From Candidatus Falkowbacteria bacterium (lineage in GTDB: Bacteria; Patescibacteriota; Patescibacteriia; Patescibacteriales; UBA12465), in the NCBI GenBank assembly GCA_037132255.1, contig JBAXPN010000001.1, positions 191,395 through 255,394 on the forward strand: 64,000 nt of DNA. Direction: 5' to 3'. Made by a program: the position numbers and the translations under genes. The notes under the pieces were generated by a model. The model saw only the letters and a program-made list of their open reading frames with translations. It had not been told where the DNA came from and made no database searches. Positions 16,754 to 23,153 of this stretch are shown here, piece after piece. Numbering within the stretch: the stretch's first letter is position 1; the number at the start of each line of letters is the position of its first letter.

Positions 16754-17110
16754 ATGTCTCAACAACTCCCCGATGTTTTTAAAAGAATTCAGGATAAGAA
16801 AAGGGAACAACGTGATCTGAAAACTATCTATCGCGACGCCCTCTCGGTCAATGGTGAATATCAGCAAGCCCTTGAAGAACTAGAAGCACTTAAAATCAAG
16901 AAGAAAAAAATTGAAGCCTCGGTGCAATCTGATTTTAAAGAAGAATTTGATAAATTAGAGGGACTGAAATTAAATATCGCCGGAGATAATCAATTACTTA
17001 GCGATTTAGCTTTAACCCAATTAACTAGCGGTGAACCGGTTAAAATTATTGATGAAAATAAGGTTGAGTACGAACCAGTATTTACCGTAAGATTTAAAAA
17101 AACCAAATAG
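16754..17110 (+). CDS. Hypothetical coiled-coil protein (118 aa)
   Basis: Charged heptad-like sequence with no recognisable family. It is followed by a terminator. Confidence 0.4.
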   Translation: MSQQLPDVFKRIQDKKREQRDLKTIYRDALSVNGEYQQALEELEALKIKKKKIEASVQSDFKEEFDKLEGLKLNIAGDNQLLSDLALTQLTSGEPVKIIDENKVEYEPVFTVRFKKTK

Positions 17111-17155: not shown

Positions 17156-17159
17156 CATG

Positions 17160-17243
17160 TGCCGCGAGAGGGAATCGAACCCTCACTAGGTCGCCCCAAC
17201 ACGATTTTGAGTCGTGCGCGTCTACCAGTTCCGCCATCGCGGC
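17160..17243 (-). tRNA. tRNA-Leu (anticodon CAA)
   Basis: The reverse complement reads GCCGCGA TG GCGGAACTGGTAGACGCGC CACGA-CTCAAAA-TCGTG TTGGGGCGACCTAGT GAGGG-TTCGATT-CCCTC TCGCGGC A. This gives a 7-bp acceptor, U33, anticodon CAA and the long variable arm typical of Leu. No CCA is encoded. Confidence 0.85.
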
Positions 17244-17331
17244 ATACTAATTACGAAATTTAGTATAATAAATATATGTCTAATTGTCAAAGATTTTTCT
17301 TTAAGATATAATAAATATAGTTATAAATCCT

Positions 17332-18096
17332 ATGGGAAAAATCATTGCTATTGTTAATCAAAAAGGCGGTGTCGGCAAGACAACGACGGCCGTAAATTTA
17401 GGTGCCTATTTAGCTTATCTTGGTAAACAGGTTCTTTTGGTTGATATTGACCCTCAAGCTAATGCAACTTCAGGTCTTGGCCTAGATCATCGAAATTTAG
17501 AGGCGGGCGTTTATGAATCCTTAATTGGCGACAAACCAGTTTTTGAAGTTATTAAAAGAACGATGCAAGAAGGTTTAAAAGTCGCTCCAGCTACTCTTTC
17601 TCTCGCTGGAGCTGGTATAGATTTGGTTAATCTCGAAAATCGCGAATTTCGCTTGTCGATAATTTTAGAAGAAATTAGAAAAGATTATGATTATATAATT
17701 ATTGACGGTCCACCATCTCTCGGATTATTAACGGTTAATAGTTTAGTCGCGGCTGATGAGGTATTAATTCCGATCCAAAGTGAATACTTCGCGCTTGAAG
17801 GCTTGAGTCAATTACTTGAAACAATCAGCCTTGTTCAAAATAATTTGAAGCCATCGCTGGGCATTATGGGCGCGGTCATTACCATGTTTGATAAACGAAA
17901 TAAATTATCCGAGGCGGTGATGGAAGAACTTTATAAATTTTTTCCCAACCGAATATTTCGCTCGGTTATTCCACGAAGTGTTCGTTTGGCCGAGGCACCG
18001 AGCTACGGACGTTCCATTTTGCACTATGATCCAAAATCTCGTGGCGGAAAAGCATATGAAGGCTTAGCGAAAGAAGTGTTGAGCCTAGAAAAATAA
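17332..18096 (+). CDS. parA: Chromosome partitioning ATPase ParA/Soj
   Basis: Deviant Walker A motif KIIAIVNQKGGVGKTTTAVNL. Confidence 0.85.
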   Translation: MGKIIAIVNQKGGVGKTTTAVNLGAYLAYLGKQVLLVDIDPQANATSGLGLDHRNLEAGVYESLIGDKPVFEVIKRTMQEGLKVAPATLSLAGAGIDLVNLENREFRLSIILEEIRKDYDYIIIDGPPSLGLLTVNSLVAADEVLIPIQSEYFALEGLSQLLETISLVQNNLKPSLGIMGAVITMFDKRNKLSEAVMEELYKFFPNRIFRSVIPRSVRLAEAPSYGRSILHYDPKSRGGKAYEGLAKEVLSLEK

Positions 18097-18107
18097 TTAA
18101 GATTTTT

Positions 18108-18503
18108 ATGAAAGTCTACAAATTCAAATACGAAAAATTAGTCCGGGATATGATACCGACGAAAATAAAAAAATCTGGCGGGAAAGTAAAACAGAAGACG
18201 CTTAGCACTAACAAATACATTTACGAACTAAAAAGGAAATTGATTGAAGAGGGAGAAGAATTACTGGTCGCAAAAAATACAAAAGACACACTTGATGAGA
18301 TGGCAGATATTCAGGAGCTAATTGATTGCTTATTGGTTTCCTTGGGCAAGAAAACACCTGATTTAAAAAAGCTGCAAAAAGAAAAGAATAAAAAGAACGG
18401 ATCTTTTAAGGACAAGATATATATAAACAATATAAGCGCTGATGAGAATTTTGATTGGTTAGACTATCATTTAAAAAACAAACAGAAATATCCCCTAATA
18501 TAA
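18108..18503 (+). CDS. MazG-like / HisE-like all-alpha NTP pyrophosphohydrolase family protein
   Basis: The core motif E47-x2-E50 ...(13 aa)... E64-x2-D67 (EEGEEL...DEMAD) matches the ExxE-x12-28-ExxD metal-binding signature. The N-terminal KLVRDMIP resembles the KLVRDxIPE start of small MazG-like proteins. Confidence 0.6.
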   Translation: MKVYKFKYEKLVRDMIPTKIKKSGGKVKQKTLSTNKYIYELKRKLIEEGEELLVAKNTKDTLDEMADIQELIDCLLVSLGKKTPDLKKLQKEKNKKNGSFKDKIYINNISADENFDWLDYHLKNKQKYPLI

Positions 18504-18509
18504 TAATAT

Positions 18510-19388
18510 ATGCCTCAAGGATTAGGCCGTGGACTCGGCTCTCTTATTCCAAAAAAAACAATGACTTACGGCCAGAATCCATTTAAGTCAGAGATGGCCG
18601 AAGAAGAAACGGTTGTTCTTCATGATGGGGATAGAATTTTAAAAATTAATCCCAGCCGCATTTCAATAAATCCGCAGCAACCACGTACTTTTTTTTCGGA
18701 CACCGCTCTTAATGACTTAGCTGAATCTATTAAGCAGCACGGCATTATCTCGCCGCTTATCGTTACTAAAAAAGACGATGGCTATGAACTTATTGCCGGA
18801 GAGCGCCGCTTGCGAAGCGCCAAATTAATTGGCCTTAAGGAAGTTCCAGTTATTGTCCGCGAAGAAAAAGATCAGAAAAAATTAGAAATCGCTCTAATTG
18901 AAAATTTGCAACGCGAAGACTTGAACCCGCTCGAAACAGCTCGTGCTTACCAAAGATTAATCGATGAATTTAGTATCACCCAAGAAGAAGCAGCCCGTAA
19001 GCTAGGGAAAGCGCGCTCAAGTGTTGCTAATGCTTTGCGTTTATTAGCGCTTCCACTTGAAATCCAGGAAGCCTTAGCTAGCGGAAAGATTAGCGAGGCC
19101 CATGCTAAATATTTACTTGGTCTTGAAGGAGAGGCAAAGCAAATAAACATGCTTAAAAAAATAATGCGGCAGAATTTAACAGTTGCTGAAACTGATAAAG
19201 AAATTAAGCGACTAGGCGGTACGAAGGCGGCAAAAACAAAAGATTATTTCGACCGCGCTCGCGAAGAAGAACTCGGAGAACTACTTGCGACAAAAGTAGA
19301 AATAAAGCGCCAAGGTAAGGGTGGAAAATTAGTCTTTGATTTTTACTCGGAAGAAGAATTAAATGAAATTATTAAGAAAATAAAATAA
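18510..19388 (+). CDS. parB: Chromosome partitioning protein ParB/Spo0J
   Basis: ParB box LIAGERRLRSAKLIGLKEVPVIVRE and helix-turn-helix region. Confidence 0.85.
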   Translation: MPQGLGRGLGSLIPKKTMTYGQNPFKSEMAEEETVVLHDGDRILKINPSRISINPQQPRTFFSDTALNDLAESIKQHGIISPLIVTKKDDGYELIAGERRLRSAKLIGLKEVPVIVREEKDQKKLEIALIENLQREDLNPLETARAYQRLIDEFSITQEEAARKLGKARSSVANALRLLALPLEIQEALASGKISEAHAKYLLGLEGEAKQINMLKKIMRQNLTVAETDKEIKRLGGTKAAKTKDYFDRAREEELGELLATKVEIKRQGKGGKLVFDFYSEEELNEIIKKIK

Positions 19389-19426
19389 ATTTTAGGTGAT
19401 GATTTTTTAAAAATATTAGTATAGAT

Positions 19427-19463
19427 AAAAGTGGCAATTTCTAAAAGAATGCCACTTTTTTTG
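19427..19463 (+). terminator. Rho-independent terminator
   Basis: Hairpin AAAGTGGCA...TGCCACTTT followed by T7. Confidence 0.7.
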
Positions 19464-19565
19464 TTTAAAATTATATTTGCCATCCTGAACTTCTTATACT
19501 AAAATGATAATGGCTTGATGAGTTAATAATCACCAATTTTTAAGAATAAAATAAGCACATAATTA

Positions 19566-22500
19566 ATGTCTTTTGTCCACCTCCACAATCATAGCCATTA
19601 TTCATTACTCGACGGTTTAACTAAACTGGACGAGATGATTAATTTTGCCAAGGAGCAAGGATCGCCGGCGGTCGCTTTAACTGACCACGGTTCCATGTAT
19701 GGCGCTATAGAATTCTATCAGAAGGCTAAAAAGGCCGGAATTAAGCCAATTATTGGTGTAGAGACCTATTTAGCCCATAATTCTCGTTTTGATAAAAATA
19801 CCCGAGAAGATGCACGTAGTTTCCATCTTTTATTACTGGCTAAAAACGAAATAGGTTATAAAAATCTCATAAAATTAGTTTCCCATGCTCATATGGAGGG
19901 CTTTTATTATAAGCCACGTATTGATTGGGATTTGCTAAAAGAACATAGCGAGGGGCTTATTGCCTCAACAGCTTGTTTAGCCGGGGAAATACCACGCTTA
20001 ATCATGGCCGAAAAGCTTGACGAGGCTAAAAAGAGAATCAAGGAGTATAGTGAGCTATTTGGGCCGGGGAATTTTTATCTTGAGTTAATGGATCATCCTG
20101 AAATTCCCGAGCTTGTTAAAGTTAATGCTGTTCTCATTGAGCTTTCCAAAGAGCTAAAGATCCCCGTTATTGCTACTAATGATGTCCATTATTTAAAAAA
20201 AACCGATGCTGAGGCTCAGGATATTCTTTTATGTTTGCAGAATAAGAAAAAAATAACCGATACCGATCGCATGAAAATGATTGGCACTGGAGACTACTCG
20301 ATGCGTCCAAATGCGGAGATGATAGCCGCCTTCAAGCATATTCCAGAGGCGATTGAAAATACTCTGAAAATTGCCGATATGTGCAATTTAGAAATTGAAT
20401 TAGGTAATATCCAATTACCGCATTTTGAAGTTCCTGATGGTTATGACGGTAATTCCTATTTGCGTGAATGGTCAGAGAATGGAATCTTAAAACGTTTTCC
20501 AAATGCTACAAACGAGGAGCTAGTCCCTGTTCGCGAAAGACTTGATTACGAACTCGCCGTTATTGCTAAAATGGGCTGGCCATCATACTTTTTAATTGTC
20601 GCTGATTTTATCAATTGGGCAAAGGAAAATAAAATCGTCGTTGGACCTGGTCGCGGTAGCGCAGCGGGTTCTATGGTCTGCTATTTAACTGGTATTACGA
20701 ATTTAGATCCTTTAAAGTATGATTTACTCTTTGAACGTTTCTTAAATCCAGAACGTATCTCCATGCCTGATATCGATATGGACTTTGCTGATATAAGACG
20801 CGGCGAAGTTTTAAATTATGTCGGAGAAAAATATGGGCACGATCACGTCGCTCAGATTATAACTTTTGGAACTATGGCAGCCCGGGCGGCCGTGCGAGAC
20901 GTCGGCAGAGTACTTGATGAACCTTATGAATTTTGTGATAAAATTTCGAAGAGTATTCCGATGTTCATGAAGCTCGATGAGGCAATTAAAACGGTTCCAG
21001 AGCTTAAGGACCTATATAATAACGAGCCGGCAGCCAAGCGTATTTTAGATTATGCGCGCCGTCTTGAAGGAGTTGCTCGCCACTCTTCGACTCATGCCTG
21101 TGGTGTTTTAATTACCAAGAATCCCTTAACTGAATACGTTCCGATTCAATACGCATCGTCCTCTGATCGCAGTATTATTTCACAATACTCTTTGCATCCG
21201 ATTGAAGATCTCGGTCTCTTAAAGATGGATTTTTTAGGATTAAAAAATTTAACGATTATTGAATCCGCACTTAAAATTATTAAAAATACTCGCGGTCTGG
21301 AAATAAATATTGATGAAATTCCACTTGATGACAAACAGAGCTACAAATTATTTCAGGATGGGGAAACCACTGGTGTTTTTCAATTTGAATCATCTGGCAT
21401 GAAGCGTTATTTGCGGGAATTGAAGCCAACTGTTTTTGAAGATATTATTGCCATGGTTGCCTTATATCGTCCGGGGCCAATGGAGTGGATTCCCGATTAT
21501 ATTTCCGGAAAACATAAAACAAAAAAAGTTGTTTATTTGCATGAAAAACTTGCTCCAATTTTAGAAAAAACTTATGGGGTAGCTATCTATCAGGAACAAG
21601 TTATGCAAATTGCTCGTGATTTAGCTGGCTTCACTATGGGTCAGGCTGATGTTTTGCGTAAAGCGATGGGTAAAAAAATTGCATCGCTACTCGCCGAACA
21701 AAAGGAAAAATTCATTGAAGGTTGTGTAAAAAATGGTGTTTATAAGGAATTAGGGGAAAAGGTTTTCTCATTTATCGAGCCATTCGCTGGTTATGGCTTT
21801 AATCGGTCACACGCCGCTTGCTACGCGATGATTGGCTATCAAACCGCTTATCTTAAAGCTCATTGGCCGGTCGAGTTTATGGCCGCATTACTAACCTCTG
21901 ATCAAGGCGACACCGACCGCGTGGCGATTGAAATCGAAGAATGTCGGAATATGGGCATTAAGATAATGGCGCCTGATATTAATGAATCATTTGGAACATT
22001 CACGGTTGTTACTGCCGGCACAAAAGAAAATCGAATTGTGGCAGCCAATGAAAAAGTCGATACTGTTCGCTTTGGATTAAAAGCGATTAAAAATGTTGGC
22101 GAGCATATTGTCGATACCGTAATTCAAGAAAGAAAAGAGAAAGGTCCCTTCAAAGATATCTTTGATCTACTTGAAAGAGTGACTGATCGTGATTTAAATA
22201 AAAAATCACTCGAGAGTTTAATTAAGAGCGGAGCTATGGATAGTTTCGGCGAAAGGGGTGAGCTGCTCGCAAACATGGAAAAGCTTTTGAATTATAATAA
22301 AGAATTAGCAAAAAATCGTGATAGTCGGCAGAGTAGTTTATTCGGCGATCTTCCTGAAGGGTCGGGTTTAAGTCGGACAACTCTTACGCCGGCACCGCCA
22401 GCCGAGCAAAACGAAAAGTTGATTTGGGAAAAAGCCTTATTAGGTTTATATGTTAGCGAACATCCTTATAGCGTATTTCGACCTTATTTAGTAAATTATA

Positions 22501-23153
22501 CAGTTCCGCTAGTTAAACTTAGCCACCATAAGGGAGCAGAAAGAGTTATAACGGCCGGTATTATTTCGACGGTTAAAAAAATTATCACGCGTAAGGGCGA
22601 GTCAATGCTGTTTGTTAAACTTGAAGACGCTACCAATACGGTTGAATTATTAATATTTCCTCGATTATATAAGGAGACATTGAATCTTTGGGTTGAAGGT
22701 CAGGCGATTATTCTTGATGGCAAAGTCTCGGAAAAGGATCAGGAGATAAAAGTATTAGTCAATCGCGCGACTCCGCTTGATCCTGATGCACCAACCAAAT
22801 CAATTGACGACTTTAAGCGGATTATAATGGCTGCTGGGCCACCGAAACCAAGTTACATGAATAAATATCGTAACGCTAATGCTGTAATTGCAAAAAAAGT
22901 TGAAGTTGCCGAAGAAACATCGATGCCTAAAAATCCTTTGCGCCTTATTTTTCTTAGCGACCTCGATCAACAAGATTTATTAAATTTAAAATCCGTCTTT
23001 TCTAAATATCCCGGCGAAAACGAAGTATATTTTAAAATTACCGAGAGCGGTAAGGCAAAAATTCTTAAAACTGCTTTTCGCGTTGAAAATAATGATGACT
23101 TAATAAAGAAATTAAAAGAAGATTTTAAAGATCTTATTAAGATTGCAGAATAA
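19566..23153 (+). CDS. dnaE: DNA polymerase III alpha subunit
   Basis: N-terminal PHP domain HLHNHSHYSLLDG, followed by the polymerase core, an OB domain and a C-terminal tail. Length is 1195 aa. Confidence 0.9.
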   Translation: MSFVHLHNHSHYSLLDGLTKLDEMINFAKEQGSPAVALTDHGSMYGAIEFYQKAKKAGIKPIIGVETYLAHNSRFDKNTREDARSFHLLLLAKNEIGYKNLIKLVSHAHMEGFYYKPRIDWDLLKEHSEGLIASTACLAGEIPRLIMAEKLDEAKKRIKEYSELFGPGNFYLELMDHPEIPELVKVNAVLIELSKELKIPVIATNDVHYLKKTDAEAQDILLCLQNKKKITDTDRMKMIGTGDYSMRPNAEMIAAFKHIPEAIENTLKIADMCNLEIELGNIQLPHFEVPDGYDGNSYLREWSENGILKRFPNATNEELVPVRERLDYELAVIAKMGWPSYFLIVADFINWAKENKIVVGPGRGSAAGSMVCYLTGITNLDPLKYDLLFERFLNPERISMPDIDMDFADIRRGEVLNYVGEKYGHDHVAQIITFGTMAARAAVRDVGRVLDEPYEFCDKISKSIPMFMKLDEAIKTVPELKDLYNNEPAAKRILDYARRLEGVARHSSTHACGVLITKNPLTEYVPIQYASSSDRSIISQYSLHPIEDLGLLKMDFLGLKNLTIIESALKIIKNTRGLEINIDEIPLDDKQSYKLFQDGETTGVFQFESSGMKRYLRELKPTVFEDIIAMVALYRPGPMEWIPDYISGKHKTKKVVYLHEKLAPILEKTYGVAIYQEQVMQIARDLAGFTMGQADVLRKAMGKKIASLLAEQKEKFIEGCVKNGVYKELGEKVFSFIEPFAGYGFNRSHAACYAMIGYQTAYLKAHWPVEFMAALLTSDQGDTDRVAIEIEECRNMGIKIMAPDINESFGTFTVVTAGTKENRIVAANEKVDTVRFGLKAIKNVGEHIVDTVIQERKEKGPFKDIFDLLERVTDRDLNKKSLESLIKSGAMDSFGERGELLANMEKLLNYNKELAKNRDSRQSSLFGDLPEGSGLSRTTLTPAPPAEQNEKLIWEKALLGLYVSEHPYSVFRPYLVNYTVPLVKLSHHKGAERVITAGIISTVKKIITRKGESMLFVKLEDATNTVELLIFPRLYKETLNLWVEGQAIILDGKVSEKDQEIKVLVNRATPLDPDAPTKSIDDFKRIIMAAGPPKPSYMNKYRNANAVIAKKVEVAEETSMPKNPLRLIFLSDLDQQDLLNLKSVFSKYPGENEVYFKITESGKAKILKTAFRVENNDDLIKKLKEDFKDLIKIAE

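Follow-up and report, generated by a model that had tools for sequence, protein, structure and literature searches.

The parA-parB Locus and Its Third Gene

The window analysed here, a 64,000-nt stretch of a Candidatus Falkowbacteria genome, carries a parA-parB pair with a third, unrelated gene lodged between the two. The parA gene encodes a soj-type partition ATPase of 254 aa (17332-18096, + strand; Pfam AAA_31, E = 1.2e-64, and CbiA, 1e-30). The parB gene encodes a spo0J-type protein of 292 aa (18510-19388, +; ParB_N, 1e-29, HTH_ParB, 2.3e-35, and ParB_C, 2e-10), which scores 193 bits against TIGR00180, where the cut-off is 58, and its translation includes an N-terminal LGRGLGSL peptide and a GERRLR box. 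The intervening open reading frame (ORF) of 131 aa has an ATG start (18108-18503, +) and encodes a predicted all-alpha NTP pyrophosphohydrolase. It is separated from parA by an 11-nt spacer, TTAAGATTTTT (18097-18107, +), and from parB by 6 nt (18504-18509, +), and both the coordinates and the profile matches of the flanking genes bear out the arrangement given in a preliminary description of this DNA. Below, W denotes the window locus, L-numbers denote related loci and P-numbers denote family members.

The spacers are also short in relatives. The parA-ORF spacer measures 10-16 nt in five aligned related loci and reaches 22 nt in L077 and L079, while the ORF-parB spacer is 3 nt in the five aligned loci and 4 nt in L079. 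The latter is shorter than in the window because the ORF of the relatives has one extra codon (…PLIK*), the site being a TAA stop in the window and AAA in L005.

A promoter-like site, TTGTCA-17 nt-TATAAT, matching at 11 of 12 positions in what was a consensus scan only (17284-17312, +), lies 20 nt upstream of the parA start in the gap between parA and a tRNA-Leu gene (17159-17243, -) and is likely to be the operon promoter. Downstream of parB, a terminator-like hairpin, AAAAGUGGCA…UGCCACUUUU, followed by a U-run (19427-19466, +), likely marks the end of the operon; the 95-nt stretch containing it has a centroid energy of -13.6 kcal/mol and a z-score of -2.07. It was missed by the consensus scan, possibly because its central unpaired stretch exceeds the loop limit of the scan. 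The scan yielded no terminator-like site in either ORF spacer, and its two matches, both within parB (18525-18540, +, and 18685-18673, -), were dismissed as chance occurrences, since 2.9 were expected from shuffles. The sequence is thus consistent with co-transcription of parA, the ORF and parB. No canonical parS was found in the window with up to three mismatches allowed, and hence none lies in or near the insert.

The locus shares with canonical chromosomal parAB (soj-spo0J) operons both genes and their order, the ParA-activating peptide at the ParB N-terminus, the GERR box, one promoter-like site and one terminator-like hairpin, but it differs in the intercalated gene. A literature search produced no report of a gene located between parA and parB.

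Assignment to the MazG/HisE Superfamily

The ORF product had initially been described as a MazG/HisE-like enzyme. Taken alone, the window protein matches Pfam PRA-PH with E = 0.009 and 16.8 bits, below the gathering score of 21.3, and it has no match to Pfam MazG or MazG-like and none to any NCBIfam model. The superfamily assignment therefore rests on family-level evidence. In the NCBI databases the identical protein carries the product name "nucleoside triphosphate pyrophosphohydrolase", and RefSeq gives Bacillus relatives the same name.

A profile built from 12 close homologues detected 8238 representative clusters, 3491 of them at E <= 1e-10. Nearly all of the matches are full-length proteins of about 130 aa, aligned over positions 5 to 131 approximately, and they share the signature F-x-F-x-KLVRDKI … EExxE … E(L)AD(I/V)xE … K-x2-K-x-G-x-F … W-x2-YY … YP(E/L)I. 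We refer to them as the KLVRDKI family, which we take to correspond to COG4997 (CDD NTP-PPase_COG4997). The window protein is a full-length member with all of the signature motifs (profile E down to 1e-43), the codons of the N-terminal K10-L11-V12-R13-D14 segment occupying 18135-18149 (+). A literature search revealed no description of the family and, to our knowledge, no member has been assayed, so that the substrate, and even the activity, discussed below are inferred.

Among 136 diverse family members, PRA-PH matched 66 (best E = 4.6e-8), MazG 31 (1.2e-7) and MazG-like 27 (2.9e-8). When the family profile was compared with sequences in the PDB, HisE 1yvw (E = 0.004) and HisIE 7bgm (E = 0.007) led, followed by 5ie9, YpjD 2gta, 3c90, 1y6x, 1vmg, 1yxb and 2a7w, and all of these best nine matches are all-alpha NTP pyrophosphohydrolases. 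This signal emerged only with the 136-sequence profile; single-sequence and 12-sequence profiles gave coiled-coil noise. Together with the residue conservation considered below, these family-level comparisons support the identification of the ORF product as a pyrophosphohydrolase of the MazG/HisE superfamily with conserved catalytic Glu and Asp residues, even though the window protein alone remains below threshold.

Predicted Catalytic Residues and Fold

The ExxE-x13-ExxD motif on which the initial description was based is literally present, as E47xxE50-x13-E64xxD67, but the acidic residues can also be read in a second register, E48xxE51-x12-E64xxD67. Of the two, only the x12 register is conserved, since homologues differ at E50. 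When the protein was shuffled 20,000 times, a motif with the exact spacing arose in 0.2-0.3% of cases and a generic ExxE-x12-28-ExxD in 4.2%, so that the motif alone is weak evidence and it is the conservation that counts. The predicted Mg2+-binding residues E47/E48, E51, E64, D67 and E70 (codons E47 to E70, 18246-18317, +) were found, with both E47 and E48, to be invariant in the 12 close homologues. Across the 136 diverse members, R13, E48 and D67 never vary, and conservation reaches 90% or more at E47, E51, E64, E70, K10, K93, G98 and F100; conservation of the catalytic Glu and Asp residues, in the form E48xxE51…E64xxD67, thus withstood examination well beyond the immediate relatives.

In the profile alignment to HisE 1yvw, the EEaeE of the family pairs with EEcaE and its E..AD with E..D. 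An equivalent four-residue site, ExxE…ExxD, binds Mg2+ in the Mycobacterium tuberculosis MazG, where the ligands are Glu119, Glu122, Glu138 and Asp141 (PMC10014863). An AlphaFold2 model of the window protein is all-helical with a pLDDT of 94.3 and places the acidic residues on consecutive helices (34-54 and 58-78). Foldseek comparison of the model with the PDB again put HisE structures first, but with a best E-value of 0.3, which is not significant, and the fold support is accordingly suggestive only.

Comparison with HisE and MazG Proteins

HisE (PRA-PH, PF01503), represented by the Bacillus cereus 1yvw and M. tuberculosis 1y6x structures, is the best Pfam, PDB-sequence and Foldseek match and shares the two-helix acidic core with the window family. 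These matches might suggest that the ORF encodes a true HisE or, alternatively, a canonical MazG regulating (p)ppGpp or a mazEF module. We consider either identity extremely improbable. TIGR03188, the HisE domain model, gives family members 16-20 bits against a cut-off of 42.7 and does not match the window protein. Moreover, the family has two additions relative to HisE, the KLVRD segment at the N-terminus and about 35 aa at the C-terminus, the latter beyond every stretch matched to HisE or MazG chains (query positions 36-97), and no his, mazE or mazF genes flank the gene in the loci examined, which thus lack any histidine-biosynthesis context. Canonical E. coli-type MazG is a mazEF-linked protein of tandem domains, whereas the window protein is a single domain of 131 aa with parA and parB as its flanks.

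Among MazG-like proteins, the comparison is with single-domain house-cleaning enzymes, including B. subtilis YpjD (2gta), a Bacillus MazG (5ie9), the S. solfataricus protein 1vmg and the phage MazZ (7ody). They belong to the same superfamily and have the same Mg2+ site as M. tuberculosis MazG (PMC10014863), and the conversion of NTP to NMP and PPi is presumably common to them and the window family. The PDB profile E-values are, however, only 0.1-0.65, and the window family differs in the shorter spacing of its acidic pairs (x12) and in its terminal extensions.

Indications of a House-Cleaning Role

Some family members are fused to other domains, namely NUDIX (P0031, P0069), Ham1/ITPase (P0080, L064) and uracil-DNA glycosylase (UDG; P0045), and the first two represent two of the other superfamilies of house-cleaning enzymes (PMC10014863). 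These fusions make a house-cleaning (d)NTP pyrophosphohydrolase the best reading of the family. Among the 63 distant loci, 11 have the gene immediately downstream of ligA, separated from it by -8 to +5 nt. In the cell, the enzyme most likely serves to clear non-canonical or surplus (d)NTPs from the supply for DNA synthesis.

Conservation and Loss of the Insertion

The tight parA-ORF-parB arrangement recurs at related loci (L001-L008, L076, L077 and L079-L081) down to an ORF identity of 48%, and ParA proteins of related loci are 85-99% identical to that of the window. The insertion junctions are clean and occur at the same position across the aligned loci. In five of the 13 sampled lineages (L072, L073, L074, L075 and L078), on the other hand, parA is joined directly to parB, with 3-52 nt between them and otherwise the same synteny, and their ParB proteins are 80-92% identical. 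Two of these ORF-less loci, L072 and L078, branch within the carriers (bootstrap 90-99.8% and 89-97%, respectively), and the ORF copy of L077 (GCA_964648205.1, CAZYNT010000005.1) contains an in-frame TAA nonsense codon. The insertion is conserved in relatives, but its presence is patchy. L005 appeared to offer a counter-example, with the order parA-ORF-FemAB, but it was rejected; its contig is probably chimeric because the "FemAB" gene starts with the first 45 residues of ParB.

Further afield, 92 more distant family loci (63 + 29) were inspected over 3-4 kb of flanking sequence on either side, and none has a ParA or ParB gene in that span. The parA/parB-flanked position was seen only in this Falkowbacteria-like lineage, whereas other family members follow ligA, lie beside NUDIX genes, form Ham1, NUDIX, UDG or GNAT fusions, or occur in unrelated contexts.

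Selection on the ORF

Selection was assessed by the NG86 method and trees were constructed by neighbour joining with bootstrap. For the ORF, pN is 0.13-0.26 and pS 0.6-0.9, giving a pN/pS of about 0.15-0.3, and omega is about 0.11-0.12 where dS was measurable, compared with 0.01-0.05 for parA, parB and dnaE. In almost every pair the synonymous sites are saturated, and a finite dS was obtained for only three ORF pairs. The ORF is a real gene under purifying selection.

A spurious or pseudogenised frame, decaying and without function, might have been suspected from the G+C content of the ORF (0.32-0.33, against 0.38-0.44 for its neighbours), and from the nonsense codon in one relative and the clean deletions in two. 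The frame is, however, intact in nine distinct lineages, and the evolutionary rates above, the conserved catalytic residues and the confident structure model all speak against decay; selection and conservation together refute it in large part, and we attach almost no credence to it. The low G+C content was also set aside as a sign of foreign origin, because weakly conserved neighbours, such as a 118-aa ORF, have similar values.

Lateral Exchange, Phages and Defence

The ORF tree broadly tracks that of the flanking genes: W groups with L076 and L001 with L003, and L079 branches deepest. The exception is L077, whose ORF groups with those of L001 and L003 (91% bootstrap), and with that of L007 in none of 1000 replicates, while its ParA, ParB and DnaE group with those of L007 (99.8-100%). 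For the L007-L077 pair the pS of the ORF, 0.86, exceeds that of the flanks (0.55-0.58). This well-supported conflict is a hint that related lineages have exchanged the ORF laterally.

The ORF might, by extension, be a laterally moving accessory cassette that is spread or replaced when the very conserved parA and parB flanks of related genomes recombine homologously; in a variant of this explanation the gene could be selfish or engaged in genetic conflict, acting, for example, against phage-modified nucleotides. Such mobility would fit the patchy presence of the gene as well as the behaviour of L077, and a short relative on a Bacillus plasmid sits among DUF1524, HNH and TIGR02679 genes. Nevertheless, there are no repeats, integrase or transposase at the locus and the junctions are clean and identically placed, apart from L077 the ORF tree broadly follows that of its flanks, and the L077 metagenome assembly may be chimeric; an omega of about 0.11 is moreover not suggestive of an arms race. 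We regard a mobile cassette as unlikely.

Searches for phage and defence connections returned little. PADLOC gave no defence match, the window protein had no match in PHROGs, where two relatives weakly matched unnamed families (E = 0.0025-0.009), and tblastn against 50,697 phage records gave no match. The top fold match in BFVD was an unnamed RaK2 protein (E = 1.8e-3). Given these near-empty results a phage or defence function was set aside for the window locus, and the earlier proposal of an inserted selfish gene with phage or toxin-antitoxin associations found no support from repeats or from any of these searches.

Relationship to the ParABS System

ParB hydrolyses CTP and ParA hydrolyses ATP (PMC12462528, PMC9298525), and the window ParB retains its GERRLR box. 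A pyrophosphohydrolase encoded between them could be coupled to partition by hydrolysing or sanitising CTP or ATP, the respective cofactors, or by removing CDP- or CTP-like inhibitors, and the effect would be to tune ParB clamp loading or ParA cycling. Such coupling would account for the retention of the ORF exactly between parA and parB, where it is stable from 100% to 48% ORF identity with spacers that are always short, and under purifying selection. We nonetheless consider it very unlikely. The five lineages without the gene, of which two sit within the carriers, have ParA and ParB proteins not visibly different from those of carriers (85-99% identity), one copy has a nonsense codon, the 92 distant loci show no association with parAB, and the domain fusions indicate dNTP and DNA-repair chemistry. 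The suggestion, made from the gene's position, that nucleotide sanitation is tied to segregation or to the origin region is not supported by its distribution. Neither does the ORF behave as a third component of ParABS, since it does not always accompany parAB and its family is unlinked to parAB in the distant loci.

A narrower version, to which we give even less weight, is that the enzyme is a lineage-specific accessory factor of ParABS. Hydrolysis of CTP, or of a damaged or modified analogue, near the site of ParB synthesis would then set the nucleotide state of the clamp, and repeated loss would reflect alternative tuning of ParB. If true, the enzyme would be without known precedent in controlling a partition system via its nucleotide cofactor. 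The importance of the finding would be much greater only in the improbable event that the enzyme acts on CTP or ATP as the cofactor of ParB or ParA.

A Probable Dispensable Passenger of the Operon

The explanation that we favour, with a probability of about 0.7, is that the ORF encodes a functional house-cleaning NTP pyrophosphohydrolase and is a dispensable passenger of the parAB operon rather than a component of ParABS. Loss of the gene in sister lineages and the lack of parAB adjacency in the wider family make passenger status most likely. The product would be a Mg2+-dependent, single-domain, all-alpha enzyme converting (d)NTPs to (d)NMPs and PPi. By analogy with HisE and MazG, E48, E51, E64 and D67, with E47 and E70, would bind metal ions from two adjacent helices, and the bound metals would activate a water molecule to attack the phosphoanhydride bond between the alpha and beta phosphates. 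The triphosphate is probably held in place by R13, which is invariant, and by K10 and K93, which are nearly so, and the active form is probably a dimer.

As a passenger, the gene would have become lodged in the short parA-parB spacer in the Falkowbacteria-like lineage, where it lies next to dnaE and would be transcribed with the two partition genes from the parA promoter. It would have been kept there for a long time under purifying selection and yet have remained dispensable. The position persists over divergences that saturate synonymous sites, which might not be anticipated for a purely neutral passenger, and some positional benefit might therefore exist, for example through expression alongside genes of replication and segregation.

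Significance

The kind of enzyme is already known, and what is unusual is the position of its gene in the operon, which is lineage specific and most likely dispensable. If the passenger explanation is correct, its importance is modest: it would mean that the usually tight parA-parB junction can house an unrelated gene over long evolutionary time. The filled, deleted and nonsense states of the junction would provide a natural series for studying operon hitch-hiking in the reduced genomes of Patescibacteria. Moreover, the locus draws attention to a very large family of NTP pyrophosphohydrolases, with more than 8000 representative clusters, whose NUDIX, Ham1 and UDG fusions make it a good target for substrate discovery.

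Gene organisation around parA and parB

Gene calling and translation place an ORF of 131 codons, with an ATG start, at 18108–18503 on the plus strand of the window, between parA and parB genes of the same orientation. The former (17332–18096) encodes a ParA-type ATPase (Pfam AAA_31, 1.2e-64) and the latter (18510–19388) is complete, with ParB_N, HTH_ParB and ParB_C domains (TIGR00180, 193 bits), confirming the arrangement claimed in the preliminary description, including its spacers of 11 nt on the parA side and 6 nt on the parB side. A consensus scan located a near-consensus promoter-like site (TTGTCA-17-TATAAT, 17284–17312) before parA and placed no terminator-like site in either spacer, and a hairpin followed by a U-run (19427–19466) lies 3' of parB. 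Given these features, the anatomy fits a single parA-ORF-parB transcript. The sole two terminator matches fall within parB and are treated as chance occurrences (2 found against 2.9 expected from shuffled sequences).

A minus-strand tRNA-Leu(CAA) gene (17159–17243) divides the block from the genes upstream of it, occupying a gap between parA and a conserved 118-aa ORF lacking a Pfam match (16754–17110, plus strand). Relatives carry other extra genes in this gap, namely a minus-strand LAGLIDADG_3 endonuclease gene in loci L076 and L077, a 477-aa gene in L073 and DUF4202 in L074, so that gene content just ahead of parA is variable. The canonical parS sequence TGTTTCACGTGAAACA had no match in the whole window (1–64000), even with 3 mismatches; either parS lies beyond the window or the site used in this lineage has diverged.

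Family affiliation of the ORF protein

Searched alone, the ORF protein matches Pfam PRA-PH below threshold (E = 0.009, 16.8 bits, gathering score 21.3) and yields nothing meaningful in NCBIfam or among PDB sequences. An identical NCBI protein is annotated as 'nucleoside triphosphate pyrophosphohydrolase [Candidatus Falkowbacteria bacterium]', and a word-indexed search gave only 11 other relatives, at 49–76% identity. A profile built from those relatives and run against 1.84 billion cluster representatives matched 8238 proteins at E ≤ 0.001, of which 3491 reach E ≤ 1e-10; almost all are about 130 aa long and align end to end. Among 136 diverse members, PRA-PH is matched by 66 (best 4.6e-8), MazG by 31 (best 1.2e-7) and MazG-like by 27 (best 2.9e-8), so that Pfam supports the assignment through the relatives, but not through the window protein by itself.

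The nine best PDB matches of the 136-sequence profile are all all-alpha NTP pyrophosphohydrolases, led by HisE 1yvw (0.004) and HisIE 7bgm (0.007) and followed, in order, by 5ie9, YpjD 2gta, 3c90, 1y6x, 1vmg, 1yxb and 2a7w. In the 1yvw alignment, EEcaE and E..D of HisE stand opposite EEaeE and E..AD of the family. The confident AlphaFold model of the ORF protein (pLDDT 94.3) is helical and places the acidic residues on two successive helices, 34–54 and 58–78, and Foldseek ranked HisE structures first; since its E-value of 0.3 is not statistically significant, the fold evidence for superfamily membership is suggestive only.

The ExxE-x13-ExxD motif noticed earlier is present as E47xxE50-x13-E64xxD67, but this register relies on E50, which varies among homologues; the conserved register is E48xxE51-x12-E64xxD67. 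The generic motif arises from composition alone in 4% of shuffled sequences, and it is therefore conservation, rather than the presence of the motif, that carries weight. R13, E48 and D67 are invariant in the 136-member alignment, and conservation is at least 90% at K10, L11, D14, L41, K44, E47, E51, E64, E70, K93, G98 and F100, which bears out the predicted conservation of the catalytic Glu and Asp residues. In Mycobacterium tuberculosis MazG, Glu119, Glu122, Glu138 and Asp141 form a four-ligand Mg2+ site (PMC10014863).

HisE, MazG and dimeric dUTPase constitute one all-alpha superfamily (PMC10014863), of which, judging from the family profile and the conserved acidic site, the ORF protein is very probably a member; the MazG/HisE-type assignment was right at that level. 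It is most improbable that the protein is a true HisE or a canonical MazG, since TIGR03188 scores far below its cut-off and the protein is not tandem-domain, and both identities were rejected. It belongs to a distinct family whose members carry an additional KLVRD segment at the N terminus and a W…YP(E/L)I tail at the C terminus. This KLVRDKI family of enzymes, which is known and already annotated automatically, presumably corresponds to COG4997, and the ORF protein adds a new member to it. Some members (P0013, P0036, P0048, P0051, P0055, P0109 and P0112; 268–284 aa) consist of the entire ~130-aa module duplicated in tandem, recalling the two-domain architecture of Escherichia coli MazG.

Distribution and probable losses

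The parA-ORF-parB order recurs in L001/L002, L003/L004, L007/L008, L076, L081 (ORF identity 57%) and L079/L080 (ORF 48%, ParA 85%, ParB 81%), with 10–22 nt between parA and the ORF and 3–4 nt between the ORF and parB (6 nt in the window), and dnaE follows wherever the contig extends far enough. The position is conserved within the lineage of the window. An apparent exception, the 3.1-kb metagenomic contig L005, was set aside: the gene 3' of its ORF (2044–2994) joins the first 45 ParB residues to a FemAB-like body, and the contig is therefore probably chimeric, although a real fusion may be involved. Around more distant family members (≤47% identity, with one exception at 50%), ParA or ParB was found at 0 of 63 genome loci and 0 of 29 metagenome loci within the 3–4 kb fetched on each side, and over this range the linkage is not conserved outside the lineage. 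A literature search found no report of such a gene between parA and parB, and the arrangement is best seen as a peculiarity of this one lineage, not a new system.

Conservation of the insertion, which had been raised as a question, holds for these carriers and fails in five lineages of the same synteny (L072, L073, L074, L075 and L078), where parA is joined directly to parB with spacers of 3, 9, 15, 18 and 52 nt and ParB is 80–92% identical to that of the window. In neighbour-joining trees of ParA, ParB and DnaE (1189–1416 columns), L072 is nested in the clade formed by the window, L076, L001 and L003 (bootstrap 90–99.8%), L078 clusters with L007 and L077, both carriers (89–97%), and L079, the deepest carrier, lies outside several empty lineages. 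On the simplest account, the ORF would have entered the junction long ago and then been cleanly lost several times; the identical positions of the junctions make repeated gain less parsimonious. At codon 36 the L077 ORF (2599–2997; GCA_964648205.1, CAZYNT010000005.1) contains an in-frame TAA, the rest of the frame being undamaged; it is a recently formed pseudogene or else carries a sequencing error. The presence of the ORF is lineage-restricted and dispensable.

These observations bear on whether the enzyme acts directly in ParABS, for instance on the ParB cofactor CTP or the ParA cofactor ATP (PMC12462528, PMC9298525), a possibility that the position between the two genes would favour. The losses in sister lineages, the nonsense allele of L077, the fact that ParA and ParB are unchanged in non-carriers and the lack of parAB linkage within 3–4 kb either side of all 92 distant loci make such a role very unlikely, and the functional link to segregation suggested earlier is not supported. 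The ORF is probably a passenger in the operon.

Selection and possible allelic exchange

Synonymous sites of parA, parB and dnaE are saturated even in the closest pairs (dS > 1), with omega values of 0.01–0.05; the lineages are therefore old and the three proteins extremely conserved. Their protein identity (window 17332–23153, loci L001–L081) remains 80–99% despite this saturation and, on these comparisons, constraint on the partition proteins of the group is unusually strong. For the ORF, pN of 0.13–0.26 against pS of 0.6–0.9, and omega of about 0.11–0.12 in the three pairs for which dS is finite, clearly indicate purifying selection of a strength usual among bacterial proteins. That the frame is spurious or dead, an extremely unlikely reading, is therefore ruled out.

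In one well-supported conflict, the L077 ORF clusters with those of L001 and L003 (91% bootstrap) and with that of L007 in 0 of 1000 replicates, whereas its ParA, ParB and DnaE group with L007 (99.8–100%); between L007 and L077, pS is 0.86 for the ORF against 0.55–0.58 for the flanks. This conflict and the higher pS suggest replacement of the ORF allele by recombination through conserved flanks, an assembly chimera being less likely. The L077 discordance and the patchy distribution are the only supports for a laterally exchanged accessory cassette, which we consider rather unlikely and which overlaps, without excluding, the reading of a passenger gene. No repeats or mobility genes were found at the insertion junctions, and the G+C content of the ORF (0.32–0.33, against 0.38–0.44 for parA and parB) resembles that of other weakly conserved genes nearby.

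Predicted function

A literature search found no assayed family member. Family members are fused to NUDIX (P0031, P0069), Ham1/ITPase (P0080, L064), UDG-superfamily (P0045) and, once, GNAT (P0059) domains, and NUDIX and ITPase/Ham1 are among the other house-cleaning superfamilies (PMC10014863). At the 63 distant genome loci, from species-representative genomes, mostly of Saccharibacteria, the commonest immediate upstream neighbour is an NAD-dependent DNA ligase gene (11 loci: L029, L031, L043, L046, L050, L052, L058, L059, L061, L064 and L066; family match at about 4001 in most), encoded on the same strand, -8 to +5 nt from the family gene, and NUDIX genes adjoin that gene in three (L012, L053, L068). 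The window protein had no match in PHROGs, where two relatives weakly match unnamed families (E 0.0025–0.009); no match came from PADLOC or from tblastn against 50,697 phage genomes. A short 107-aa relative on Bacillus bombysepticus plasmid pBb (L113; NZ_CP007513.1, 562242–562565), annotated 'nucleoside triphosphate pyrophosphohydrolase', is flanked by DUF1524, TIGR02679-domain and HNH-endonuclease genes, a neighbourhood resembling a defence island. Taken together, the comparative evidence points to a predicted function in nucleotide-pool sanitation tied to DNA metabolism, and a house-cleaning role is somewhat favoured for the ORF protein.

Selection acts on the ORF, which belongs to the superfamily, retains the acidic site intact and is placed as in an operon. 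We assign a probability of roughly 0.7 to the overall picture of an NTP pyrophosphohydrolase, its activity predicted, that serves in house-cleaning and travels as an operon passenger. The protein would dimerise and bind two Mg2+ ions through E48, E51, E64 and D67, assisted by E47 and E70, while R13, K10 and K93 would hold the triphosphate; (d)NTPs, preferably non-canonical or surplus nucleotides, would be converted to (d)NMP and PPi. Read from the putative parA promoter and located next to dnaE, the ORF would be co-produced with replication and segregation proteins, and this may provide a modest advantage that keeps it in place.
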